The position numbers and the translations under genes are program-made. From Escherichia coli (GTDB lineage: Bacteria > Pseudomonadota > Gammaproteobacteria > Enterobacterales > Enterobacteriaceae), in assembly GCF_017348835.2 (NCBI RefSeq), contig NZ_CP071375.1: a DNA stretch of 64,000 nt; one strand, 5' to 3'. A model generated the notes under the pieces. It was not told the DNA's origin and searched no databases. It saw only the letters and a program-made list of their open reading frames with translations. Below are positions 5,324-33,110 of the stretch, one piece after another (position 1 is the first letter of the stretch; every line of letters begins with the position of its first letter).

Positions 5324-7393
5324 TTACTGCAACAGCGAAATATCCGCAACGCGCAGGAACAGTTCGCGCAGTTTCTCCAGCATGGTCAGACGGTTGATAC
5401 GCAATTCTTTGTCATCAACCATGACCATCACTTTATCGAAGAAGGCATCGACCGGTTCACGCAGCTCTGCCAGTTCGACCAGCGCATCCTGGTAACGACC
5501 TTCCGCAAAGTACGGCTCCAGCTTGTCACGTAGCACCACAACCTGCATCGCCAGTTTAATTTCTTCCGGCTCTTTCAGAGTAGAGGCATTCACGCGATCG
5601 CTCAGCACTTCGTCAGATTTCGCCAGGATGTTAGATACACGTTTGTTCGCCGCCGCCAGTGCTGCAGCTGCTTCCAGGGTACGGAAGTGCGATACCGCTT
5701 TCATGCGGGCATCGAAATCAGCCGGACGAGTCGGACGACGCGCCAGTACCGCCTGGATGGTGTCAACGGTATAACCTTCGTCCTGATACCAGGCGCGGAA
5801 GCGACCGAGCATAAAGTCGATAACATCATCAACTACGTTGGCATTAGTCAGCTTATCGCCATACAGACGCACCGCTTCTTCGGTCAGCGTTTGCAGATCA
5901 AGGTTGAGGTTCTTCTCAACGATAATTCGCAGCACGCCAAGTGCGGCACGACGCAGCGCAAACGGGTCTTTGTCGCCTTTCGGATGCTGACCGATACCGA
6001 AGATACCCGCCAGAGTATCCATCTTATCAGCAATCGCCAGCGCACAAGCTACCGGGTTGGACGGCAGGTCATCACCGGCAAAGCGCGGCTGATACTGCTC
6101 ATTCAGCGCGACGGCTACGTCTTCCGCTTCGCCATCGTGACGCGCGTAGTGCATCCCCATAACGCCTTGGGTGTCGGTGAACTCGAAGACCATGTTGGTC
6201 ATCAGGTCACACTTAGACAGCAGGCCCGCACGGGTTGCGTGGTTAACGTCAGCGCCAATCTGTTCGGCGATCCAGCCAGCCAGCGCCTGGATGCGGTCAG
6301 TCTTGTCACGCAGCGTACCCAGCTGTTGCTGGAACAGCACGGTTTGCAGGCGCGGCAGGTTATCTTCCAGACGTTTTTTACGGTCGGTGTTGAAGAAGAA
6401 CTCGGCATCAGCCAGACGTGGACGAACGACTTTCTCGTTACCAGAGATAATTTGCTGCGGATCTTTCGATTCGATGTTGGCAACGAAGATAAAGTTCGGC
6501 AGCAGTTTGCCGTCGTTCGCATACACCGGGAAGTACTTCTGGTCACCTTTCATGGTGTAAACCAGCGCTTCAGACGGCACAGCGAGGAATTTCTCTTCAA
6601 ATTTCGCGGTCAGAACGACCGGCCACTCCACCAGCGAAGCCACTTCTTCCAGCAGGCTTTCGCTTAAGTCAGCGTTACCGCCAATCTTACGCGCTGCTTC
6701 TTCGGCATCGGCTTTAATCTTCGCCTTACGTTCTTCGTAATCGGCGATGACTTTCCCGCGCTCACGCAGAATTTCCGGATACTGATCGGCGTTATCGATG
6801 GTGAATTCCGGCTCGCCCATAAAGCGGTGGCCGCGAATCACGCGATCGGACTGAATGCCCAGAATGGTTGCCGGAATGACTTTGTCGCCCAGCAGCAGGG
6901 TCACGGTGTGCACCGGACGCACGAAGTGCACGTCGCTTGCACCCCAGCGCATCAGTTTCGGAATCGGCAGTTTCGCCAGCGAAGTCGCAACCATATTCGG
7001 CAGCAGTGCTTCAGTGCTTTCGCCCTTCACATGGGCGCGATACAGCAGCCATTCGCCTTTATCGGTAGTCAGACGCTCAGCCTGGTCAACGGTAATACCG
7101 CAACCACGCGCCCAACCTTCTGCCGCTTTGCTCGGTTTGCCTTCAGCGTCGAACGCCTGGGCAATCGCCGGGCCGCGTTTTTCGATTTCACGATCCGGTT
7201 GCGCTTCCGCCAGGTTAGCTACTTTCAGCGCCAGACGACGCGGAGCAGCAAACCATTGAACGGTGCCGTGTGCGAGGCCTGCGTTATCCAGCTCCGCAGT
7301 AAAGTTCGCAGCAAAGGACTCTGCCAGGCTGCGCAGTGCTTTTGGTGGCAGCTCTTCAGTGCCGATTTCCACCAGAAAAGTTTTCTCAGACAT
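5324..7393 (-). CDS. glyS: Glycine--tRNA ligase beta subunit
   Basis: 689-aa [23 protein letters not shown]…; adjacent to glyQ. Confidence 0.97.
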
Positions 7394-7402
7394 AGCCGCC
7401 TC

Positions 7403-8314
7403 TTACTTATCTTTGTTGCACATCGGGAAGCCGAGGGCTTCACGGGAAGCGTAATATGCTTCTGCCACTGCTTTGGTCAGGGTGCGAATGCGCAGAATGT
7501 AGCGCTGACGCTCGGTGACGGAGATGGCTTTACGCGCATCCAGCAGGTTGAAGCTGTGGGCGGCTTTCAGAATACGCTCGTAAGCTGGCAGCGGCAGCGG
7601 ATTTTCCAGCGCCAGCAGCTGCTGAGCTTCTTTCTCGTACTGCTCAAAGCAGGTGAACAGGAAGTCCACGTCCGCGTATTCGAAGTTGTAAGTGGACTGC
7701 TCCACTTCGTTCTGATGGAACACGTCGCCGTAGGTGGTTTTACCCAGCGGGCCGTCGCTCCAGACCAGGTCGTAAACGCTGTCTACGCCCTGAATGTACA
7801 TGGCCAGACGTTCCAGACCGTAGGTGATCTCGCCGGTAACCGGTTTACACTCCAGACCACCAACCTGCTGGAAGTAAGTGAACTGCGTCACTTCCATGCC
7901 GTTTAGCCACACTTCCCAGCCCAGTCCCCAGGCACCCAGCGTCGGGTTTTCCCAGTTATCTTCCACGAAACGGATATCGTGGATAGTCGGGTCCATGCCC
8001 AGCTCTTTCAGAGAACCAAGGTACAGCTCCTGAATATTGTCCGGCGATGGCTTAATGACCACCTGGAACTGATAGTAGTGCTGTAAACGGTTGGGGTTTT
8101 CGCCGTAGCGACCATCGGTCGGGCGACGAGAAGGCTGAACATAAGCAGCCGCCATCGGTTCTGGCCCCAGCGCGCGCAGACAGGTCATTGGGTGAGAGGT
8201 TCCCGCGCCGACTTCCATGTCCAATGGTTGAACAATGGTGCAGCCCTGGCGAGCCCAGTAATCCTGTAAGGTCAGGATCAAGCCCTGGAAGGTCCTGGTA
8301 TCAAACTTTTGCAT
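7403..8314 (-). CDS. glyQ: Glycine--tRNA ligase alpha subunit
   Basis: 303-aa [28 protein letters not shown]…. Confidence 0.97.
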
Positions 8315-8882: not shown

Positions 8883-9878
8883 ATGCAGCCCAAAATTTAC
8901 TGGATTGATAACCTGCGAGGGATAGCGTGTTTAATGGTGGTGATGATTCACACCACTACCTGGTATGTGACCAATGCTCATAGTGTTAGCCCCGTCACCT
9001 GGGATATCGCCAATGTTCTGAACTCTGCCTCTCGTGTCAGCGTGCCGCTATTTTTCATGATTTCCGGCTATCTCTTTTTTGGCGAACGCAGCGCCCAGCC
9101 GCGCCATTTCTTGCGTATCGGCTTATGTCTGTTTTTTTATAGCGCAATCGCGCTGCTCTACATTGCACTGTTTACCTCCATTAATGTGGAGTTAGCGCTG
9201 AAAAACCTGCTGCAAAAGCCAGTGTTTTACCACTTATGGTTTTTCTTCGCGATTGCGGTGATTTATCTGGTTTCACCGCTGATTCAGGTAAAGAACGCCG
9301 GCGGAAAAATGTTGCTGGTGCTAATGGTGGTGATTGGTATCATCGCTAACCCAAACACCGTGCCGCAGAAAATCGACGGTTTTGAATGGCTGCCAATTAA
9401 CTTATATATCAATGGCGATACTTTTTACTACATTCTGTATGGCATGTTGGGCCGCGCTATAGGGATGATGGACACACAGCATAAAGCACTGTCGTGGGTG
9501 AGCGCCGCACTGTTTGCGACGGGAGTTTTTATTATCTCTCGCGGGACATTATATGAATTGCAGTGGCGCGGAAATTTTGCCGATACCTGGTATCTTTACT
9601 GTGGGCCGATGGTTTTTATCTGCGCAATCGCGCTATTGACTCTGGTTAAAAACACGCTGGATACGCGTACCATTCGCGGACTTGGCTTAATCTCCCGCCA
9701 TTCGTTGGGTATATACGGATTCCACGCCTTGATTATCCATGCGCTGCGCACCCGGGGAATTGAGCTTAAAAATTGGCCAATACTGGATATTATTTGGATC
9801 TTTTGCGCAACGTTGGCAGCGAGTTTGTTACTTTCTATGCTGGTACAACGAATCGACAGAAACAGATTAGTGAGTTAA
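8883..9878 (+). CDS. wecH: O-acetyltransferase WecH (acyltransferase-3 family membrane protein)
   Basis: 331-aa polytopic membrane ORF; position and length match wecH (yiaH). Confidence 0.85.
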
Positions 9879-17975: not shown

Positions 17976-19154
17976 ATGTTTACTAAACGTCACCGCATCA
18001 CATTACTGTTCAATGCCAATAAAGCCTATGACCGGCAGGTAGTAGAAGGCGTAGGGGAATATTTACAGGCGTCACAATCGGAATGGGATATTTTCATTGA
18101 AGAAGATTTCCGCGCCCGCATTGATAAAATCAAGGACTGGTTAGGAGATGGCGTCATTGCCGACTTCGACGACAAACAGATCGAGCAAGCGCTGGCTGAT
18201 GTCGACGTCCCCATTGTTGGGGTTGGCGGCTCGTATCACCTTGCAGAAAGTTACCCACCCGTTCATTACATTGCCACCGATAACTATGCGCTGGTTGAAA
18301 GCGCATTTTTGCATTTAAAAGAGAAAGGCGTTAACCGCTTTGCTTTTTATGGTCTTCCGGAATCAAGCGGCAAACGTTGGGCCACTGAACGCGAATATGC
18401 ATTTCGTCAGCTTGTCGCCGAAGAAAAGTATCGCGGAGTGGTTTATCAGGGGTTAGAAACCGCGCCAGAGAACTGGCAACACGCGCAAAATCGGCTGGCA
18501 GACTGGCTACAAACGCTGCCACCGCAAACCGGGATTATTGCCGTTACTGACGCCCGGGCGCGGCATATTCTGCAAGTATGTGAACATCTACACATTCCCG
18601 TACCGGAAAAATTATGCGTGATTGGCATCGATAACGAAGAACTGACCCGCTATCTGTCGCGTGTCGCCCTTTCTTCGGTCGCTCAGGGCGCGCGGCAAAT
18701 GGGCTATCAGGCGGCAAAACTGTTGCATCGATTATTAGATAAAGAAGAAATGCCGCTACAGCGAATTTTGGTCCCACCAGTTCGCGTCATTGAACGGCGC
18801 TCAACAGATTACCGCTCGCTGACCGATCCCGCCGTTATTCAGGCCATGCATTACATTCGTAATCACGCCTGTAAAGGGATTAAAGTGGATCAGGTACTCG
18901 ATGCGGTCGGGATCTCGCGCTCCAATCTTGAGAAGCGTTTTAAAGAAGAGGTGGGTGAAACCATCCATGCCATGATTCATGCCGAGAAGCTGGAGAAAGC
19001 GCGCAGTCTGCTGATTTCAACCACCTTGTCGATCAATGAGATATCGCAAATGTGCGGTTATCCATCGCTGCAATATTTCTACTCTGTTTTTAAAAAAGCA
19101 TATGACACGACGCCAAAAGAGTATCGCGATGTAAATAGCGAGGTCATGTTGTAG
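17976..19154 (+). CDS. xylR: Xylose operon transcriptional activator XylR (AraC family)
   Basis: 392-aa ORF with periplasmic-binding-like N-domain and AraC HTH C-terminus. Confidence 0.95.
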   Translation: MFTKRHRITLLFNANKAYDRQVVEGVGEYLQASQSEWDIFIEEDFRARIDKIKDWLGDGVIADFDDKQIEQALADVDVPIVGVGGSYHLAESYPPVHYIATDNYALVESAFLHLKEKGVNRFAFYGLPESSGKRWATEREYAFRQLVAEEKYRGVVYQGLETAPENWQHAQNRLADWLQTLPPQTGIIAVTDARARHILQVCEHLHIPVPEKLCVIGIDNEELTRYLSRVALSSVAQGARQMGYQAAKLLHRLLDKEEMPLQRILVPPVRVIERRSTDYRSLTDPAVIQAMHYIRNHACKGIKVDQVLDAVGISRSNLEKRFKEEVGETIHAMIHAEKLEKARSLLISTTLSINEISQMCGYPSLQYFYSVFKKAYDTTPKEYRDVNSEVML

Positions 19155-20405: not shown

Positions 20406-22436
20406 ATGAAACTCGCCGCCTGTTTTCTGACACTCCTTCCTGGCTTCGCCGTTGCCGCCAGCTGGACTTCTCCGGGGTTCCCTGCCTTTAGTGAACAGGG
20501 AACGGGAACATTTGTCAGCCACGCGCAGTTGCCCAAAGGTACGCGTCCACTAACGCTAAATTTTGACCAACAGTGCTGGCAGCCTGCGGATGCGATAAAA
20601 CTCAATCAGATGCTTTCCCTGCAACCTTGTAGCAACACGCCGCCTCAATGGCGATTGTTCAGGGACGGCGAATATACGCTGCAAATAGACACCCGCTCCG
20701 GCACGCCAACATTGATGATTTCCATCCAGAACGCCGCCGAACCGGTAGCAAACCAGGTCCGTGTATGCCCGAAATGGGATGGATTACCGCTCACGCTGGA
20801 TGTCAGCGCCACTTTTCCGGAAGGAGCCGCCGTACGGGATTATTACAGCCAGCAAATTGCGATAGTGAAGAACGGTCAAATAACGTTACAACCCGCTGCC
20901 ACCAGCAACGGTTTACTCCTGCTGGAACGGGCAGAAACTGACGTCCCTGCCCCTTTCGACTGGCATAACGCCACGGTTTACTTTGTGCTGACAGATCGTT
21001 TCGAAAACGGCGATCCCAGTAATGACCAGAGTTACGGACGTCATAAAGACGGTATGGCAGAAATAGGTACTTTTCACGGCGGCGATTTACGCGGCCTGAC
21101 CAACAAACTGGATTATCTCCAGCAGCTGGGCGTCAATGCTTTGTGGATAAGCGCCCCATTTGAGCAAATTCACGGCTGGGTCGGCGGCGGTACAAAAGGT
21201 GATTTCCCGCATTATGCCTACCACGGTTATTACACACAGGACTGGACGAATCTTGATGCCAATATGGGCAGCGAAGCCGATCTACGGACGCTGGTTGATA
21301 GCGCGCATCAGCGCGGTATTCGTATTCTCTTTGATGTCGTGATGAACCACACTGGCTATGCCACGCTGGCGGATATGCAGGAGTATCAGTTTGGCGCGTT
21401 ATATCTTTCTGGTGACGAGCTGAAAAAAACGCTGGGTGAACGCTGGAGTGACTGGAAACCTGCCGCCGGGCAAACCTGGCATAGCTTTAACGATTACATT
21501 AATTTCAGCGACAAAACAGGCTGGGATAAATGGTGGGGAAAAAACTGGATCAGAACGGATATCGGCGATTACGACAATCCTGGATTTGACGATCTCACTA
21601 TGTCGCTGGCCTTTTTGCCGGATATCAAAACCGAATCAACGACCGCTTCTGGTCTGCCGGTGTTCTATAAAAACAAAACGGATACCCACGCTAAAGTCAT
21701 CGACGGCTTTACCCCTCGCGATTACTTAACCCACTGGTTAAGTCAGTGGGTCCGCGACTATGGGATTGATGGTTTTCGGGTCGATACCGCCAAACATGTT
21801 GAGTTGCCCGCCTGGCAGCAACTGAAAACCGAAGCCAGCGCCGCGCTTCGCGAATGGAAAAAAGCTAACCCCGACAAAGCATTAGATGACAAACCTTTCT
21901 GGATGACCGGTGAAGCCTGGGGCCACGGCGTGATGCAAAGTGACTACTATCGCCACGGCTTCGATGCGATGATCAATTTCGATTATCAGGAGCAGGCGGC
22001 GAAAGCAGTCGATTGTCTGGCGCAGATGGATACGACCTGGCAGCAAATGGCGGAGAAATTGCAGGGTTTCAACGTGTTGAGCTACCTCTCGTCGCATGAT
22101 ACCCGCCTGTTCCGTGAAGGGGGCGACAAAGCAGCAGAGTTATTACTATTAGCGCCAGGCGCGGTACAAATCTTTTATGGTGATGAATCCTCGCGTCCGT
22201 TCGGTCCTACAGGTTCTGATCCGCTGCAAGGTACACGTTCGGATATGAACTGGCAGGATGTTAGCGGTAAATCTGCCGCCAGCGTCGCGCACTGGCAGAA
22301 AATCAGCCAGTTCCGCGCCCGCCATCCCGCAATTGGCGCGGGCAAACAAACGACACTTTCGCTGAAGCAGGGCTACGGCTTTGTTCGTGAGCATGGCGAC
22401 GATAAAGTGCTGGTCATCTGGGCTGGGCAACAGTGA
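20406..22436 (+). CDS. malS: Periplasmic alpha-amylase
   Basis: 676-aa GH13 ORF with signal peptide MKLAACFLTLLPGFAVAAS. Confidence 0.95.
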   Translation: MKLAACFLTLLPGFAVAASWTSPGFPAFSEQGTGTFVSHAQLPKGTRPLTLNFDQQCWQPADAIKLNQMLSLQPCSNTPPQWRLFRDGEYTLQIDTRSGTPTLMISIQNAAEPVANQVRVCPKWDGLPLTLDVSATFPEGAAVRDYYSQQIAIVKNGQITLQPAATSNGLLLLERAETDVPAPFDWHNATVYFVLTDRFENGDPSNDQSYGRHKDGMAEIGTFHGGDLRGLTNKLDYLQQLGVNALWISAPFEQIHGWVGGGTKGDFPHYAYHGYYTQDWTNLDANMGSEADLRTLVDSAHQRGIRILFDVVMNHTGYATLADMQEYQFGALYLSGDELKKTLGERWSDWKPAAGQTWHSFNDYINFSDKTGWDKWWGKNWIRTDIGDYDNPGFDDLTMSLAFLPDIKTESTTASGLPVFYKNKTDTHAKVIDGFTPRDYLTHWLSQWVRDYGIDGFRVDTAKHVELPAWQQLKTEASAALREWKKANPDKALDDKPFWMTGEAWGHGVMQSDYYRHGFDAMINFDYQEQAAKAVDCLAQMDTTWQQMAEKLQGFNVLSYLSSHDTRLFREGGDKAAELLLLAPGAVQIFYGDESSRPFGPTGSDPLQGTRSDMNWQDVSGKSAASVAHWQKISQFRARHPAIGAGKQTTLSLKQGYGFVREHGDDKVLVIWAGQQ

Positions 22437-22613
22437 CTTTTCCGGCTTCCCGTTCGTCAGTACCTCGGGAAGCCGCCAACCAGGATAAAATGTCAGCCCT
22501 AATCAGCGTTGCAGGATAAAGCACCACTCACTCTTCAACAGACTGATTTGCACCCCAGCAAATGTAGCGTTATTGTTACCTTCCTTGCTACAGAGTTCGA
22601 CAGATATCCCGCT

Positions 22614-23867
22614 ATGACATTCTCCCTTTTTGGTGACAAATTTACCCGCCACTCCGGCATTACGCTGCTGATGGAAGATCTGAACGACGGTTTACGCACG
22701 CCTGGCGCGATTATGCTCGGCGGCGGTAATCCGGCGCAGCTCCCGGAAATGCAGGACTACTTCCAGACGCTACTGACCGACATGCTGGAAAGTGGCAAAG
22801 CGACTGATGCACTGTGCAATTACGACGGTCCACAGGGGAAAACGGAGCTACTCACACTGCTTGCCGGAATGCTGCACGAGAAGTTGGGTTGGGATATCGA
22901 ACCACAGAATATTGCACTAACAAACGGCAGCCAGAGCGCGTTTTTCTACTTATTTAATCTATTTGCCGGACGCCGTGCCGATGGTCGGGTCAAAAAAGTG
23001 CTGTTCCCGCTGGCACCGGAATACATTGGCTACGCTGACGCCGGACTGGAAGAAGATCTGTTTGTCTCTGCGCGTCCGAATATTGAACTGCTGCCTGAAG
23101 GCCAGTTTAAATACCACGTCGATTTTGAGCATCTGCATATTGGCGAAGAAACCGGGATGATTTGCGTCTCCCGGCCGACGAATCCAACAGGCAATGTGAT
23201 TACTGACGAAGAGTTGCTGAAGCTTGACGCGCTGGCGAATCAACACGGCATTCCGCTGGTGATTGATAACGCTTATGGCGTCCCGTTCCCGGGTATCATC
23301 TTCAGTGAAGCGCGCCCGCTATGGAATCCGAATATCGTGCTGTGCATGAGTCTTTCCAAGCTGGGTCTACCTGGCTCCCGCTGCGGCATTATCATCGCCA
23401 ATGAAAAAATCATCACCGCCATCACCAATATGAACGGCATTATCAGCCTGGCACCTGGCGGTATTGGTCCGGCGATGATGTGTGAAATGATTAAGCGTAA
23501 CGATCTGCTGCGCCTGTCTGAAACAGTCATCAAACCGTTTTACTACCAGCGTGTTCAGGAAACTATCGCCATCATTCGCCGCTATTTACCGGAAAATCGC
23601 TGCCTGATTCATAAACCGGAAGGAGCCATTTTCCTCTGGCTATGGTTTAAGGATTTGCCCATTACGACCGAGCAGCTCTATCAGCGCCTGAAAGCACGCG
23701 GCGTGCTGATGGTGCCGGGGCACAACTTCTTCCCAGGGCTGGATAAACCGTGGCCGCATACGCATCAATGTATGCGCATGAACTACGTACCAGAGCCGGA
23801 GAAAATTGAGGCGGGGGTGAAGATTCTGGCGGAAGAGATAGAAAGAGCCTGGGCTGAAAGTCACTAA
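22614..23867 (+). CDS. avtA: Valine--pyruvate aminotransferase
   Basis: ORF trimmed to MTFSLFGDKFTRHSGITLLMEDL… (417 aa). Confidence 0.95.
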   Translation: MTFSLFGDKFTRHSGITLLMEDLNDGLRTPGAIMLGGGNPAQLPEMQDYFQTLLTDMLESGKATDALCNYDGPQGKTELLTLLAGMLHEKLGWDIEPQNIALTNGSQSAFFYLFNLFAGRRADGRVKKVLFPLAPEYIGYADAGLEEDLFVSARPNIELLPEGQFKYHVDFEHLHIGEETGMICVSRPTNPTGNVITDEELLKLDALANQHGIPLVIDNAYGVPFPGIIFSEARPLWNPNIVLCMSLSKLGLPGSRCGIIIANEKIITAITNMNGIISLAPGGIGPAMMCEMIKRNDLLRLSETVIKPFYYQRVQETIAIIRRYLPENRCLIHKPEGAIFLWLWFKDLPITTEQLYQRLKARGVLMVPGHNFFPGLDKPWPHTHQCMRMNYVPEPEKIEAGVKILAEEIERAWAESH

Positions 23868-23874
23868 AAATTGC

Positions 23875-23990
23875 CTGATGCGCTACGCTTATCAGGCCTA
23901 CATGATTTCTGCAATATATTGAATTTGTAAGAATTTGTAGGCCGGATAAGGCGTTTACGCCGCATCTGGCATAAACAAAGCGCACTATTC
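23875..23990. repeat. REP/BIME cluster
   Basis: GCCTGATGCGCTACGCTTATCAGGCCTACA… and GTAGGCCGGATAAGGCGTTTACGCCGCATC… REP consensus units. Confidence 0.8.
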
Positions 23991-24017: not shown

Positions 24018-24491
24018 TCAAACAGGCTGCTGCCGTAGCCGATGCCGCTGCACTTTCTCGACATCCATGCACTGCAACGCCTTTGTCGGGCAGGCTTCAA
24101 CACAGGCCGGTCCCGTCGCCCGATGCCAGCACAGATCGCACTTAATCGCCCTCGCCTTTTTGCGCGAAGAAACGACCTCCATCGCACCAAACGGGCAAGC
24201 CAGCATACAGCTTTTACAGCCAATGCAACGTGATTGTTCAACGAAAATATGCCCATGTTCGCGGCTTATCGCGTCAACAGGGCAGACATTCGCGCACGGT
24301 GCATCTTCACACTGATGACAGGCTACTGCCGTGGTCCAGCTGTGGTCTTTAATAACACGAATACGGGAAATAAACTCGTCTGGTGACAACGCAGCGCAAT
24401 CCTGATTTTCCTGATGCGACACTGCGCAAGCCACTTCACAGGTACGGCAACCGATACATTTCGTCGCATCCGCAATAATAAACCGGTTCAT
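24018..24491 (-). CDS. ysaA: 4Fe-4S ferredoxin-type protein YsaA
   Basis: Multiple CxxCxxC…CP cysteine clusters; ~157 aa; start could be the Met two codons upstream (24497). Confidence 0.9.
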   Translation of the reverse strand: MNRFIIADATKCIGCRTCEVACAVSHQENQDCAALSPDEFISRIRVIKDHSWTTAVACHQCEDAPCANVCPVDAISREHGHIFVEQSRCIGCKSCMLACPFGAMEVVSSRKKARAIKCDLCWHRATGPACVEACPTKALQCMDVEKVQRHRLRQQPV

Positions 24492-24734
24492 GATCACCCC
24501 TTTGCACTAAAACAGCAGAGTGCCAGAGAGCGCGTCCCTACTGCTTTGATCCAACGAAGGAAATGTTAAAGTTTTGGCACTTGTCCAAAGCGTTATGTGA
24601 TCGCGCCCAGGTCATCCCTGACAGTAAATCCCAGTTCATTAGAAATAGCCTGCGCGGTTTCACGCAGAGGTTTCAGGAGATTTTTCTCTCCCACCTGTTT
24701 CAGACGTGATGTCGAAAGCGAAATCGACACGGCA

Positions 24735-25550
24735 CTACGAATTGATATGTTCCTTGCTGTAACGCCGCTTCCACGCTGCTGGCGTTAAACCGGTGTGTTT
24801 GCGAAAAATCTGCCGGAAATAGCCAACGTCATTAAACCCGCACAACGCCGCCACTTCCGTGAGCGATCGCGCTTCGCTAATTAACAGCTTTTCGGCTTCG
24901 CGCACCCGCTGGCGATGGATTGCTTCTGTTAACGTCAGATGAAACACCCGCCGGTAGACGCGCCCAAGATAATCGGCATTGCAGTACAGCTCGCGGGCCA
25001 GAAGCGCCGTAGAAAGCGGGCGATGATATTGCGTGCGGATCAGTTTCTGCGCTTTCCAGGCAAGGGTGGTGCCTGCGCCATCGGCCTGTTCATCAAGACG
25101 CGCGTCACGGGTGAGCTGCTGCAAAATGAGCAGCACAATAAACTCCAGCGCCGGAGTGCGTTGATGCTTTTCCTGTTCGCTTAAGAACTGGCGAAACAGG
25201 GCCACCAGCGCCTGCGGATCGACAACCTTCGTTTGTTGCGGCACGCTAAGATGAGTAAGCCAGCGAGGGTCGTTGTCCGGCGCTTTAACCTCAAAATGCA
25301 GCCAGTAAAATTTGAGATCGGCGGGAAAATCCTCCACCCCAACATGTTGTCGGTTCGGCCAGAGTAATAAACTCTCTCCCGCATCGACCAGAAATATCCG
25401 TTCTTCTTCCTGAATCGTTAATCGACCTTTTTCGACAAAGATAATTTCCCATGACTCCAGCCGCCTTGCAGGATGCCTCCCTACGCCACGGGAAATAAAT
25501 AATCCACCATTTTGCACTTTAATCGGTAACGTCATGGATAATTCGAGCAT
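24735..25550 (-). CDS. AraC-family transcriptional regulator (cupin N-domain + HTH)
   Basis: 271-aa ORF with C-terminal AraC HTH (…EVAALCGFNDVGYFRQIFRKHTGLTPAAWKRR); divergent from the transporter gene. Confidence 0.8.
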   Translation of the reverse strand: MLELSMTLPIKVQNGGLFISRGVGRHPARRLESWEIIFVEKGRLTIQEEERIFLVDAGESLLLWPNRQHVGVEDFPADLKFYWLHFEVKAPDNDPRWLTHLSVPQQTKVVDPQALVALFRQFLSEQEKHQRTPALEFIVLLILQQLTRDARLDEQADGAGTTLAWKAQKLIRTQYHRPLSTALLARELYCNADYLGRVYRRVFHLTLTEAIHRQRVREAEKLLISEARSLTEVAALCGFNDVGYFRQIFRKHTGLTPAAWKRRYSKEHINS

Positions 25551-25775
25551 TGATATGTAATTTCCCGCTTACTCATTAATGATTAAACACATTACCTTTT
25601 GATTATTAATCAAAAACATTAATTTCACCTGATCCATTTCACACTTTTAAATTCAGGTCGGAATCGTCACCTTTTTTTACTCTTTTCTCGCCTTGTTGAT
25701 ATTCCCGTTCACGGCAGAATTAATCAGGTCATTTCAATAAAACTAAAAATTGCTCCCTATTCACGAGGAATATCT

Positions 25776-27176
25776 ATGACCTCTACACCGATTACTACCG
25801 CTGATATCGCTAAAGGTAAAATTGACGATGCGTTATCTGTACGGGAAAAAATAGGCTACGGCCTGGGTGACGCAGGCGGCACCGTAATAACTTGCCTGAT
25901 CATGAATTTTCTCACCTTTTTCTACACCGACGTTTTTGGATTAACTCCGGCGCTGGTTGGCACGCTGTTTATTGCACTGCGCGTGTTTGATGCCATCTCC
26001 GACCCGGTGATGGGCGTCATTGCCGACCGGACGCAAAGTCGCTGGGGGCGCTTTCGTCCGTGGCAGCTATGGATTGCCATTCCCATCGGCATTATCGGCA
26101 TCCTGACGTTCACCGTGCCAGATGCCAGCATGGGAGTAAAAATCGCCTGGGCGTTCGGTACTTACCTGCTCCTTTCAGTCGGTTATACCGCCATCAACGT
26201 ACCGTACTGTGCGCTGATCAACACCATGACCACCCGCCACAATGAAGTGATCTCCTGCCAGTCCTGGCGATTCGTTCTCTGTGGCGTAGCGGGATTTCTG
26301 GTTTCGGTAGGCTTACCGTGGATGGTAGATCTCTTCGGTCAGGGTAATGCCGCGCGCGGCTATCAATTGGGCGTCGGCGTGCTGTGCGCCATTGCCGTGG
26401 TGATGTTCCTGTGCTGTTTTTTCTGGGTTCGTGAACGGGTGCCACTCTCCACAATGGGGAAATTTACCCTGCGCGAACATCTTGCCGGGCTGCGGAACAA
26501 CGACCAACTGCTGCTGATGCTGGTCATGTCTTTCCTGCTGATTAACGTCTTTAACATTCGCGGCGGTGGGTATATGTACTTCATTACCTACGTCTTACAA
26601 GGCAGTACGGGCTACACGTCGCTGTTCTTCACCATGGTCACCTTCGCCTCCATTATCGGCTCGGTGATTGTCAGCCCGTTAACGCGGCGTTTCGATACCG
26701 TCAAAATTTACTACTACACCAACCTGCTCCTCGCTGCGCTGGCGGTGTTGATGTGGTTCCTGCCCTCCGGCCCGGCTTATCAAACGCTGTGGCTGGCGGT
26801 GATCCTCGGTAATGGCGTAATTCTTGGCTTCACATTGCCACTGCACTTCTCATTGATGGCCTTTGCCGATGACTACGGCGAGTGGAAAACCCGCGTACGT
26901 TCTTCCGGCATGAACTTCGCCTTCAATCTGTTTTTCATCAAGCTGGCCTGGGCCTCCAGCGCCGGGATCATCAGCCTGCTGTTTATTTTTGTCGCCTACC
27001 AGCCTGGCGTGGAAAACCAGACCGCCAGTTCGCTTGGCGGGATCGCGGCGATGGAAACATTACTGCCTGCGCTATTCCACCTGCTGCTGGCAGGGGCGAT
27101 CCGCTTTTGCAAACTCAATAATCCTATGATGTCACGCATAGCTACCGACCTGCGTCAGCGTCATGTACAGCCTTAA
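25776..27176 (+). CDS. GPH-family glycoside-pentoside-hexuronide:cation symporter (MelB/YicJ/XylP-like)
   Basis: 466-aa 12-TM-like ORF with GPH signature region (…[25 protein letters not shown]…). Confidence 0.8.
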
Positions 27177-27186
27177 GGAGCACAAG

Positions 27187-29157
27187 ATGAACATTTCGGA
27201 AGTCGATCTGCATAAACTGACGGTCAGCGATCCGTTCCTCGGTCAGTACCAACAACTGGTCCGCGACGTGGTGATTCCTTATCAGTGGGATGCCTTGAAC
27301 GATCGTATACCAGAAGCGGAACCCAGCCATGCGATTGAAAACTTTCGCATTGCCGCCGGACTTCAGGAGGGTGAATTTTACGGGATGGTGTTTCAGGACA
27401 GCGACGTCGCCAAATGGCTGGAAGCGGTAGCCTGGTCGCTGTGCCAGAAGCCAGACGCCGAACTGGAAAAAACCGCCGACGAGGTGATTGAACTGGTCGC
27501 CTCCGCCCAGTGCGAAGACGGCTATCTCAATACTTACTTTACGGTAAAAGCGCCCGAAGAACGCTGGAGCAATCTGGCGGAGTGTCATGAACTTTACTGC
27601 GCAGGTCATCTGATTGAAGCCGGAGTCGCCTTCTTCCAGGCCACGGGAAAACGGCGCTTGCTGGGGGTCGTTTGCCGCCTGGCCGATCATATCGACAGCG
27701 TATTTGGTCCAGATGAAAGTAAGTTACACGGTTATCCTGGTCACCCGGAAATTGAACTGGCACTAATGCGCCTGTATGAAGTGACTGAAGAGCCGCGCTA
27801 CCTGGCGCTGACGAACTATTTTGTCGAACAGCGTGGTGCGCAACCGCACTATTACGACCAGGAATATGAAAAGCGCGGGCAGACATCGCACTGGCACACC
27901 TACGGCCCGGCGTGGATGGTGAAAGACAAAGCCTACAGCCAGGCACATTTGCCCCTTGCGCAACAGCAAACCGCCATCGGTCACGCGGTACGTTTTGTCT
28001 ATCTGATGACCGGCGTCGCGCATCTCGCGCGTTTAAGTCACGATGACAGCAAGCGTCAGGACTGCCTGCGGCTGTGGAACAATATGGCCCAGCGTCAGTT
28101 ATATATTACCGGCGGCATTGGCTCGCAAAGCAGCGGCGAAGCGTTCACTAGCGATTACGATCTGCCGAATGACACGGTATACGCTGAAAGTTGCGCCTCC
28201 ATCGGCCTGATGATGTTTGCCCGACGAATGCTGGAAATGGAAGGCGACAGTCAATATGCCGATGTGATGGAGCGCGCACTGTACAACACCGTGCTCGGCG
28301 GCATGGCGCTGGATGGCAAACATTTCTTCTATGTGAATCCGCTGGAAGTACATCCAAAATCGCTGAAATTCAACCATATCTACGATCACGTTAAACCGAT
28401 CCGCCAGCGTTGGTTTGGCTGCGCTTGTTGTCCGCCAAATATCGCCCGCGTGCTGACCTCGATTGGTCATTATCTCTACACGCCGCGTGAAGATGCGTTG
28501 TATATCAACATATACGCAGGAAACAGCATGGAAGTGCCGGTAGAAAATGGCACGCTGCGCCTGCGGGTTAGCGGGAACTATCCGTGGCAGGAGCAGGTGA
28601 CGATTGCGGTTGAATCGCCCCAGCCGGTACGTCATACGCTGGCTTTACGTCTGCCGGACTGGTGCACACAGCCGCAGATCATATTGAATGGGGAAGAGGT
28701 CGAGCAGGATATTCGTAAAGGGTATTTGCACATTACCCGCGAATGGCAGGAGGGCGATACGCTGAATCTGACTTTGCCGATGCCGGTACGCCGCGTTTAC
28801 GGTAACCCGCTGGTGCGTCACGTCGCCGGAAAAGTGGCGATTCAGCGCGGCCCGCTGGTGTATTGCCTGGAACAGGCCGACAACGGCGAGTCACTGCATA
28901 ATCTGTGGCTGCCCACCGATGCGCCATTTACGACATTTGAAGGCAAGGGATTGTTTAGCCATAAGATCTTAATCCAGGCACCGGGTTACCGGTATGAACA
29001 GAGCAATCCAGAGCAGCAACCGCTGTGGCATTACGACAGCGCGCCAGCCAAACGCCAGACGCAAACTCTGACCTTTATCCCGTGGTTTAGCTGGGCCAAC
29101 CGGGGTGAAGGCGAAATGCGGATCTGGGTGAATGAGGAAAAGCATTGCCATCCGTAG
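27187..29157 (+). CDS. Glycoside hydrolase family 127 (DUF1680; beta-L-arabinofuranosidase-like)
   Basis: ORF trimmed to MNISEVDLHKL… (GGAG RBS 8 nt upstream); conserved GCACCPPN cysteine motif typical of GH127. Confidence 0.7.
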   Translation: MNISEVDLHKLTVSDPFLGQYQQLVRDVVIPYQWDALNDRIPEAEPSHAIENFRIAAGLQEGEFYGMVFQDSDVAKWLEAVAWSLCQKPDAELEKTADEVIELVASAQCEDGYLNTYFTVKAPEERWSNLAECHELYCAGHLIEAGVAFFQATGKRRLLGVVCRLADHIDSVFGPDESKLHGYPGHPEIELALMRLYEVTEEPRYLALTNYFVEQRGAQPHYYDQEYEKRGQTSHWHTYGPAWMVKDKAYSQAHLPLAQQQTAIGHAVRFVYLMTGVAHLARLSHDDSKRQDCLRLWNNMAQRQLYITGGIGSQSSGEAFTSDYDLPNDTVYAESCASIGLMMFARRMLEMEGDSQYADVMERALYNTVLGGMALDGKHFFYVNPLEVHPKSLKFNHIYDHVKPIRQRWFGCACCPPNIARVLTSIGHYLYTPREDALYINIYAGNSMEVPVENGTLRLRVSGNYPWQEQVTIAVESPQPVRHTLALRLPDWCTQPQIILNGEEVEQDIRKGYLHITREWQEGDTLNLTLPMPVRRVYGNPLVRHVAGKVAIQRGPLVYCLEQADNGESLHNLWLPTDAPFTTFEGKGLFSHKILIQAPGYRYEQSNPEQQPLWHYDSAPAKRQTQTLTFIPWFSWANRGEGEMRIWVNEEKHCHP

Positions 29158-29159
29158 GT

Positions 29160-29285
29160 TGGATAAGGCACTCGCGCCGCATCCAACGTAAGGAGCACAT
29201 TGCCTGATGCGACGCTTAACACGTCTTATCAGGCATACAAGTCGGTGCGAGAGCGTAGGCCAGCCGCACCGACATCCACCGGTGA
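29160..29285. repeat. REP/BIME-like palindromic units
   Basis: GGATAAGGCACTCGCGCCGCATCC… and TGCCTGATGCGACGCTTAACACGTCTTATCAGGCA palindromes. Confidence 0.7.
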
Positions 29286-29286
29286 A

Positions 29287-30027
29287 TTAAAAACGCCAGC
29301 TCACGCCGGTGACAAAGGTAAAACTCTCATTACGATCAATCATCGGGCTGTCGGTAATCTCTTCCGGCAGCTCGCTGTATCCTGCGCTCGCCATCAATAC
29401 GACGTGCTCTCCTATCGGGTATTTTGCCGTCAGGCTGACATAGGGCACCCAGGCATCCTGCGCGGAATAACTTGCCAGACCGCTACGACGGGACTCACTC
29501 TCTGAAATGCCATAGTAATAGTCACTGAAATTCTCGTCATAATAGAGAACGCCCAGCGCAGGTGTCAGCGACAGACGACCTATCTGCATTTTGTGGAATA
29601 CCGATAGCTCCCCCACCCAGCCGTTGCTGTTATCCAGAACGTCCGCAGCTGCAGAGGCTTTCACGGTTCCCCAACGCTCGTGGTGATACCAGGCAACCCC
29701 CGCCATAGCCGTACTATCACGCTTATCAAGCTGTTGCATGGCATAATCGTCATTATCGGCAGGGTCAAATTCCAGCGGCATCCAGGATGCGGTCAGGCTA
29801 AGTTCATTTTTTTCACTTTGCGACAGAATAAAACCTAACGTGGTCTGACGAACATAAAAAGAATCACCTTCATAACTAATCAGGGGAATTGCCTTTGTAT
29901 TTTCATTATAACCGCGATAAGGTGATTCATTATAAGCCGCACCGGCACCAATGGATAATTCAGAAGCAGTTGCGCTTGCCATAAAAGGCAACGCAAATAA
30001 CGCCACAATATTGCGGTTAATTAACAT
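29287..30027 (-). CDS. yiaT: MipA/OmpV-family outer membrane protein
   Basis: 246-aa ORF with signal peptide and terminal aromatic residue (…GVSWRF); synteny with yiaUVW. Confidence 0.85.
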   Translation of the reverse strand: MLINRNIVALFALPFMASATASELSIGAGAAYNESPYRGYNENTKAIPLISYEGDSFYVRQTTLGFILSQSEKNELSLTASWMPLEFDPADNDDYAMQQLDKRDSTAMAGVAWYHHERWGTVKASAAADVLDNSNGWVGELSVFHKMQIGRLSLTPALGVLYYDENFSDYYYGISESESRRSGLASYSAQDAWVPYVSLTAKYPIGEHVVLMASAGYSELPEEITDSPMIDRNESFTFVTGVSWRF

Positions 30028-32989: not shown

Positions 32990-33110
32990 TAAATTGTAAC
33001 AACGTGCGCTTTGTTTATGCCGGATGCGGCGTGTACGCCTTATCCGACCTACGGTCAGGTTCCCGTAGGCATGATAAGACGAGTAAGCGTCGCATCAGGC
33101 AATGAATACC
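32990..33110. repeat. REP/BIME cluster
   Basis: GCCGGATGCGGCGTGTACGCCTTATCCGACCTAC… and AGCGTCGCATCAGGCAAT units. Confidence 0.75.

Follow-up and report, generated by a model that had tools for sequence, protein, structure and literature searches.

The window analysed here, a 64,000-nt stretch of an E. coli chromosome whose positions serve below as gene coordinates, carries between ysaA and yiaT three adjacent genes encoding an AraC-type regulator, a glycoside-pentoside-hexuronide (GPH):cation symporter and a glycoside hydrolase of family 127 (GH127). We found that this cassette is ancestral at its locus in E. coli and that K-12 lost it by deletion; as judged by alignment, the catalytic apparatus of its GH127 enzyme is intact. 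We consider it probable that the three genes form a self-contained operon with which small beta-L-arabinofuranosides are scavenged. The genes are already annotated and the kinds of protein they encode are already known. Literature searches, part of which were loosely specified, turned up no study, biochemical or genetic, of the GH127 enzyme of E. coli or of any other enterobacterium.

A predicted beta-L-arabinofuranosidase of family GH127

The assignment of the third gene to GH127, made in an earlier reading of the sequence (the original prediction), is confirmed by hidden Markov model matches to PF07944 (E = 1.2e-111, residues 20-435 of the 664-residue longest open reading frame, ORF), PF20736 (1.3e-23) and PF20737 (3.2e-25). 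The catalytic (alpha/alpha)6 domain and both beta-sandwich domains of the family layout are present. The best PDB match is the Geobacillus stearothermophilus protein 4QJY (782 bits, E = 4.9e-234, full-length; 54% identity by BLASTP), for which the activity label, beta-L-arabinofuranosidase, is taken from the depositor's molecule name and the title of the paper; the second is Bifidobacterium longum HypBA1 (507 bits, E = 1e-150, 42% identity, also full-length). GH127-family enzymes with other activities match more weakly, and over the C-terminal ~400 residues only (6EX6, 386 bits; 5MQO, 319 bits). These scores place the enzyme much nearer to the two beta-L-arabinofuranosidases (EC 3.2.1.185) of solved structure than to family members of other activities. 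Assignment as an aceric acid hydrolase (NF049879) was rejected, as the protein scores 455.7 bits against a cutoff of 950 and matches with residues 260-657 only.

HypBA1 uses Cys417 as nucleophile and Glu322 as acid/base, and it holds zinc through Glu338, Cys340, Cys417 and Cys418 (PMC8106489, PMC10850190); His142, Tyr145, His194 and Arg273 make up the sugar-binding site (PMC10850190). In an alignment of five sequences (E. coli, Salmonella, Klebsiella, Geobacillus and HypBA1), the HypBA1 residues H142, Y145, H194, H270, R273, E322, E338, C340, C415, C417 and C418 are all invariant. The E. coli equivalents are Cys414 and Glu318 for the nucleophile and the acid/base, Glu334, Cys336, Cys414 and Cys415 for the Cys3-Glu zinc site, and His134, Tyr137, His186 and Arg269 for the sugar site. 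Both the GCACCPPN motif singled out in the original prediction and the expected alignment of the catalytic Cys and Glu with those of HypBA1 are thereby upheld. HypBA1 residues 35-49 form a loop that caps the active site (PMC10850190); in the alignment, the E. coli enzyme and the Geobacillus type have 12 residues fewer in this loop.

The longest ORF begins at 27163 and would overlap the symporter gene by 14 nt; we rejected this start in favour of the ATG at 27187, which is also the RefSeq start. In the sequence CAGCCTTAAGGAGCACAAGATG, the symporter TAA (27174-27176) is overlapped by a perfect AAGGAG Shine-Dalgarno sequence (27175-27180), with the ATG six nucleotides further on and 10 nt past the symporter stop. 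The same 10-nt gap is found in Klebsiella, Kosakonia, Kluyvera, Enterobacter, Citrobacter and Salmonella enterica subsp. houtenae. Because of this start context, the RefSeq start and the conserved gap, we read the two genes as tightly coupled, in operon-like fashion, without overlapping, and the predicted protein as 656 residues long; the slight overlap described previously follows from the 27163 start alone. The N-terminus, MNISEVDLHKLTVSD, has no hydrophobic signal sequence, which suggests that the enzyme acts in the cytoplasm and needs its substrate to be imported.

Symporter, regulator and control region

The symporter scores above the cutoff for TIGR00792 (TC 2.A.2; 331.8 bits against 231.35, residues 25-462) and matches PF13347 (9.4e-73), in agreement with its earlier assignment to the GPH family. 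It aligns end to end with the MelB structure 4M64 and keeps MelB Asp55 and Asp59. It falls below the cutoffs of all four named subfamilies, of which YagG (354.6 against 610) and PRK11462 (323.1 against 836) are the nearest, ahead of MelB (206.2 against 456) and the glucuronide transporter (191 against 528). This indicates that it belongs to a separate orthologue group.

The regulator, likewise correctly recognised as AraC-type, matches PF02311 (cupin AraC-like ligand-binding domain, 1.3e-9), PF12833 (4e-19) and PF00165 (5e-8). Its identification as AraC proper (NF007860) was rejected, at 61.1 bits against an equivalog cutoff of 208; with E. coli AraC it shares 23% identity over the full length, too little for ligand-binding residues to be read from the alignment.

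We aligned eight orthologous divergent intergenic regions from seven genera to obtain a phylogenetic footprint, in which several blocks are conserved (Table 1). Near the regulator start lies a perfect 7+1+7 palindrome, the core of which, TTGATTATTAA, varies hardly at all across the seven genera; the palindrome might serve as an operator or as the promoter of the regulator gene. If the CAGAAT element were the -10, the CRP-like site would be centred near -92 and the conserved 27-nt block would span about -73 to -45, a layout like that of araBAD.

Two deletions, not a replacement

The gene order in the window is malS (20406-22436), avtA, ysaA (24018-24497, minus strand), the three ORFs, yiaT (29287-30027, minus strand), yiaU and yiaV. 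All three ORFs are intact, and the 5-kb stretch 24400-29400 matches the pig strain PE164 with 100% identity and O157:H7 genomes with 98.9%. RefSeq annotates the same three genes in PE164 (as 'AraC family transcriptional regulator', 'MFS transporter' and 'glycoside hydrolase family 127 protein'), in accord with the gene calls and coordinates proposed at the outset. The proposal of a three-gene unit filling the interval between ysaA and yiaT needs one amendment: the three genes are there, and the gap between ysaA and the regulator gene also holds a remnant of yiaJ, which encodes the IclR-type repressor of the yia-sgb operon. This remnant is annotated as a pseudogene in PE164. As had been stated, there is no copy of yiaK-sgbE in the window.

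We searched 5,426 complete E. coli genomes with junction-spanning queries; the counts are raw, and O157:H7 and clinical isolates are over-represented in the collection. The cassette is present to 80% or more in 2,311 genomes (42.6%); it is thus not universal in E. coli, as had been expected, and it is also not rare. In 1,892 genomes (34.9%) sgbE and the regulator gene are contiguous, that is, both blocks are present. The deletion junction seen in the window recurs in 426 (7.9%), O157:H7 included, and 2,461 (45.4%), K-12 included, have the yia-sgb block together with K-12-type deletion scars of the cassette. Other configurations, such as sgbE without a regulator remnant, account for ~650 (~12%). 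The full arrangement is exemplified by strain MSB1_9I, in which ysaA is followed by yiaJ, yiaKLMNO, lyxK, sgbH (annotated as ulaD), sgbU, sgbE (annotated as araD), the regulator, symporter and GH127 genes, and yiaT. The original prediction had placed the cassette where K-12 carries yiaJ-sgbE, and in its stead; its site is in fact between sgbE and yiaT.

Comparison of the window with both sides of the MSB1_9I haplotype locates a ~8.99-kb deletion at a 4-nt CGGC microhomology. This deletion took most of yiaJ, yiaKLMNO, lyxK and sgbHUE, together with the terminator hairpin that separated sgbE from the regulator gene. The window therefore descends from the full arrangement by a microhomology deletion that removed yiaJ-sgbE. 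K-12 shows a different history. It retains 116 nt matching the 3' end of the regulator gene (annotated as a pseudogene of 102 nt; 94.8% identity to the window) and a 190-nt internal piece of the GH127 gene (K-12 locus 1907-2095, corresponding to window 28860-29049; 89.5% identity). Its present state corresponds to two deletions, one of window positions 24839-28859 (4,021 bp) and one of 29050-29259 (210 bp, with CCAGCC microhomology), the latter having removed the 3' end of the GH127 gene and the repeats that follow it. The adjacent yiaT is 99% identical between K-12 and the window; the lower identity of the GH127 fragment would fit an ancient deletion with subsequent neutral drift, or else a divergent allele. 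Taken together, the remnants and the haplotype with both blocks indicate that the ancestral arrangement was longer and that the states of the window and of K-12 arose from it by deletion, independently of one another. The cassette and the yia-sgb block lie side by side and vary each on its own.

The reading implied by the original prediction, that the cassette is a horizontally acquired island which replaced yiaJ-sgbE, draws on the fact that the cassette fills the interval in which K-12 has yiaJ-sgbE, on its G+C content (53-57%, slightly above that of the flanks) and on the presence of the three genes at other chromosomal sites in Klebsiella and Kosakonia. These points are outweighed by the 1,892 E. 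coli genomes in which the two blocks are adjacent, by the yiaJ remnant and clean microhomology junction of the window, by the regulator and GH127 remnants of K-12, by a site common to Salmonella, Kluyvera, Citrobacter and Enterobacter, and by cassette edges at which there is no integrase, insertion sequence (IS) or tRNA gene; we regard this reading as refuted. The locus thus clearly illustrates how K-12, taken as the only reference, can mislead, in that an apparent insertion or replacement is really the outcome of two independent deletions. We found no study of the yiaJ-sgbE deletion of O157 in the literature.

Between the regulator gene and ysaA, which with the intervening yiaJ remnant lie on the same strand, the sole terminator-like hairpin is a weak one at 24649-24668 (minus strand). 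With the terminator between sgbE and the regulator gene lost, read-through from the regulator gene by way of the yiaJ remnant towards ysaA is possible.

The cassette in other genera

GH127 orthologues with 83-87% identity are found in Salmonella, Kluyvera, Kosakonia, Klebsiella, Scandinavium, Enterobacter and Citrobacter; measured against the E. coli proteins, the regulator is 62-83% identical, the symporter 81-90% and GH127 83-85%. In Kluyvera the three genes stand between lyxK-sgbHUE and yiaY-selBA, and in Salmonella enterica subsp. houtenae between lyxK-sgbHUE and aldB. Citrobacter (malS-avtA-ysaA, the three genes, aldB) and Enterobacter ludwigii (malS-avtA, the three genes, hicAB...aldB) resemble the window in being without the yia-sgb block. 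In Klebsiella (between feoABC and lldP) and Kosakonia (near pth-ychF) the three genes have moved as a unit into differing chromosomal contexts. These shared contexts indicate that the three genes form a conserved module and that its position between malS and selB predates the split of these genera. Thus, the cassette has long resided in the malS-avtA...aldB-selB region of Enterobacteriaceae, directly downstream of sgbE.

The ratio of non-synonymous to synonymous substitution rates (dN/dS) across the three genes lies at 0.02-0.08 within E. coli and at 0.05-0.13 in comparisons between genera, for which dS is saturated; by gene, the values are 0.03-0.13 for the regulator, 0.02-0.09 for the symporter and 0.05-0.08 for GH127. 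This indicates purifying selection on all three genes.

Two local features of these loci may be recorded. In the Salmonella enterica subsp. enterica genome GCA_010859705.1, a deletion scar at locus positions 7973-8003 fuses ATGACCTCTA to TAGCCTTAAGGAG and leaves the GH127 Shine-Dalgarno sequence in place. In Enterobacter ludwigii, a hicA/hicB toxin-antitoxin pair lies directly 3' of the GH127 gene (locus 9007-9615), and the upstream side is without both the yia-sgb block and ysaA.

Proposed function

In the operon that we consider probable, the GPH symporter would import a glycoside together with H+ or Na+. The likeliest substrates would be beta-1,2-L-arabinobiose or comparable pieces of hydroxyproline-rich glycoproteins, arabinan or arabinogalactan proteins from plants, set free by other microbes, of the gut or associated with plants, on which E. 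coli would depend; such reliance is suggested because no extracellular enzyme accompanies the cassette. We chose beta-1,2-arabinobiose as the model substrate because intracellular HypBA1 cleaves it after import (PMC8106489, PMC10850190). The cytoplasmic GH127 enzyme would then cleave the beta-L-arabinofuranosyl bond, with the zinc-held Cys414 as nucleophile and Glu318 as acid/base, and the released L-arabinose would enter the araBAD pathway. On binding its ligand, the divergent AraC-type protein would activate the weak promoter of the symporter and GH127 genes, probably together with CRP and cyclic AMP. We infer the substrate, the inducer, the coupling ion and the promoter architecture from sequence comparison, by which a small beta-L-arabinofuranoside is the most likely substrate.

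Several observations weigh against this proposal. GH127 is a polyspecific family, and the only NCBIfam match of the enzyme is to aceric acid hydrolase, far below the cutoff. The shorter capping loop suggests that aglycone preference may differ from that of HypBA1. No enzyme for extracellular release was found beside the E. coli cassette, the search being of this locus. A consensus sigma-70 scan returned no promoter in the divergent intergenic region, only irrelevant hits, as is expected for an activator-dependent promoter. In a Salmonella transcriptome, a GH127 gene is reported to be induced on lactulose (PMC13304739), which may reflect catabolite de-repression only. About half of E. coli genomes are without the cassette through loss, and Salmonella enterica subsp. 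enterica GCA_010859705.1 has kept the regulator and GH127 genes with the whole symporter ORF cleanly deleted, while subsp. houtenae keeps the symporter (comparison locus 5590-6990). Finally, we found no enzymatic, transport or growth data in the literature for any enterobacterial member.

Some of these observations would also fit an enzyme that acts on another sugar (aceric acid, 3,6-anhydro-D-galactose or an unknown furanoside), in which case the substrate of the cassette would be unrelated to L-arabinose. At least three activities occur within GH127, and the PDB matches include 6EX6 and 5MQO; the sole NCBIfam match, the shortened loop and the reported induction on lactulose (PMC13304739) point the same way, and with 23% identity to AraC nothing ties the regulator to arabinose. 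However, the NCBIfam score is less than half of the cutoff, and the alignments with beta-L-arabinofuranosidases are full-length and much higher-scoring. Neither the four sugar-site residues of HypBA1 nor its catalytic and zinc residues vary in the alignment, and the same short loop is found in the closest solved homologue (54%), which was deposited as a beta-L-arabinofuranosidase. We therefore consider action on another sugar unlikely.

It could also be argued that the cassette is a decaying relic, without present function in E. coli and on its way to being lost. The K-12-type deletion in ~45% of complete genomes and the other configurations in ~12%, the loss of the symporter in a Salmonella enterica lineage and the failure to find a strong promoter would all be in keeping with decay. 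Against this stand the intact state of all three ORFs in the window, the 2,311 genomes that have at least 80% of the cassette, dN/dS values of 0.02-0.08 within the species and 0.05-0.13 from genus to genus, and regulatory blocks that are conserved across seven genera. Decay seems to us very unlikely on this evidence.

A more specific form of the arabinofuranoside proposal is that the module is a cross-feeding device, which lets some E. coli lineages harvest beta-L-arabinofuranosides that they cannot release themselves, with a substrate or inducer differing from that of HypBA1, and that its presence or absence underlies strain-level differences in gut or plant niche. The shortened loop and the dedicated GPH symporter might suggest such a difference in substrate or inducer. 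We hold this extended form to be speculative and, as a whole, rather unlikely. The carrier lineages in question include O157:H7 and many human isolates, and K-12 is not among them.

Comparison with known systems

With Ara127N of G. stearothermophilus T6 (4QJY/4QK0), the E. coli enzyme shares 54% full-length identity, the three-domain layout, the short N-terminal loop and the catalytic and zinc residues. The Geobacillus gene sits, in line with the title of a reference given in PMC7889515, in a large arabinan-utilisation cluster with ABC transporters, whereas the only partners of the E. coli enzyme are a GPH symporter and an AraC-type regulator.

The beta-arabinooligosaccharide system of B. longum combines the extracellular GH121 enzyme HypBA2, an ABC transporter and the GH127 enzyme HypBA1, import being followed by cytoplasmic cleavage by a GH127 enzyme with a Cys nucleophile (PMC8106489). 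The proposed logic of import followed by cleavage would be the same in the cassette, and the two GH127 enzymes are 42% identical with every named active-site residue conserved. The cassette differs in having no adjacent GH121 gene, a GPH symporter in place of an ABC transporter, an AraC-type regulator and a loop A shorter by 12 residues. A GH121 arabinobiosidase and an ABC importer beside GH127 were found neither between ysaA and yiaT nor at the loci of six other genera.

The pairing of a symporter gene with an adjacent gene for a cytoplasmic glycosidase is shared with yicJ-yicI, yagG-yagH, uidB-uidA and melB-melA, from all of which the cassette is set apart by a GH127 hydrolase and by a symporter outside the named subfamilies. 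The mel operon further resembles it in having a divergent AraC-family activator and a CRP-like site. With araC-araBAD it shares a divergent regulator, a CRP-like site ~92 bp upstream and a conserved block before a weak -35; unlike in araC-araBAD, the regulator is only 23% identical to AraC and the binding sites are putative ones, seen as footprints.

If the proposed function is true, ~43% of sequenced E. coli, enterohaemorrhagic O157:H7 included, would use a plant sugar linkage that K-12 cannot, and one more strain-variable nutrient niche would be added to the gut and plant ecology of the species. Comparative genomics of isolates from inflammatory bowel disease has placed GH127 among the accessory genes correlated with invasiveness, with the activity of HypBA1 assumed (PMC11879602); the proposed function would, if true, explain GH127 as an accessory gene with this correlation. 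A unit of three genes is simple to transfer and test. What is known of GH127 chemistry and GPH transport is left unchanged by the cassette.

Feature coordinates and flanking repeats

Table 1. Features of the cassette and its surroundings, in window coordinates.
Feature	Position	Strand	Remarks
3' remnant of yiaJ, last 46 codons and stop	24593..24733	-	Identical to the C-terminus of MSB1_9I YiaJ
Junction of ~8.99-kb deletion	24730..24733		CGGC microhomology; window against both sides of the MSB1_9I full haplotype
AraC/XylS-family regulator, 271 residues	24735..25550	-	N-terminal cupin ligand-binding domain and C-terminal double helix-turn-helix (Pfam)
Divergent control region, 225 bp	25551..25775		AT-rich, ~40% G+C; phylogenetic footprint, with putative roles for the blocks
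Palindrome TTGATTAtTAATCAA	25599-25613		Conserved footprint block
CRP-like site, CCTGA-N6-TCACA	25628-25643		GA and TCACA invariant in the footprint
27-nt block GGTCGGAATCGTCACCTTTTTTTACTC	25656-25682		Conserved footprint block
Putative -35, TTGTTG	25693-25698		Proposed from the footprint alone
Putative -10, CAGAAT	25715-25720		16-nt spacer to the putative -35; proposed from the footprint alone
Shine-Dalgarno sequence, GAGGA	25765-25769		Conserved footprint block
GPH:cation symporter, 466 residues	25776..27176	+	TIGR00792, PF13347
GH127 cysteine glycosidase, 656 residues	27187..29157	+	PF07944, PF20736, PF20737; predicted cytoplasmic beta-L-arabinofuranosidase
GCACCPPN motif, residues 411-418	28417..28440	+	Cys412/Cys414/Cys415 align with HypBA1 Cys415/417/418; predicted nucleophile Cys414 and zinc ligand Cys415
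Two REP units in opposite orientation, BIME-like	29158-29187 and 29202-29234		Inverted repeats between GH127 and yiaT

The repetitive extragenic palindromic (REP) elements that had been reported at the right edge of the cassette are indeed there. They are imperfect palindromes of ~30-35 nt with a repeated core, placed after the 3' end of a gene in the manner of bacterial interspersed mosaic elements (BIMEs), and are followed by a third hairpin. The region 29158..29234 folds with -60 kcal/mol (z = -5.5). A relaxed pattern for the core (GATGCG...CTTATC) occurs in four copies in the window against none expected; searches with full-length units matched only the query copies, and a stricter core pattern matched one copy. 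Three further core matches lie elsewhere in the window, at 23942-23966, 33023-33047 and 50937-50961, one of them between avtA and ysaA.

The stop codon of the GH127 gene abuts the first REP unit, and a TAG/GAG polymorphism gives a protein of 656 residues here and 659 in MSB1_9I (window 29155-29187; MSB1_9I locus 18430-18450). Orthologues in other genera end 5-8 residues earlier, and the last few codons thus appear to have been shaped by REP insertion. In MSB1_9I, an IS1A copy unrelated to the cassette splits yiaW (locus 21542-22641).

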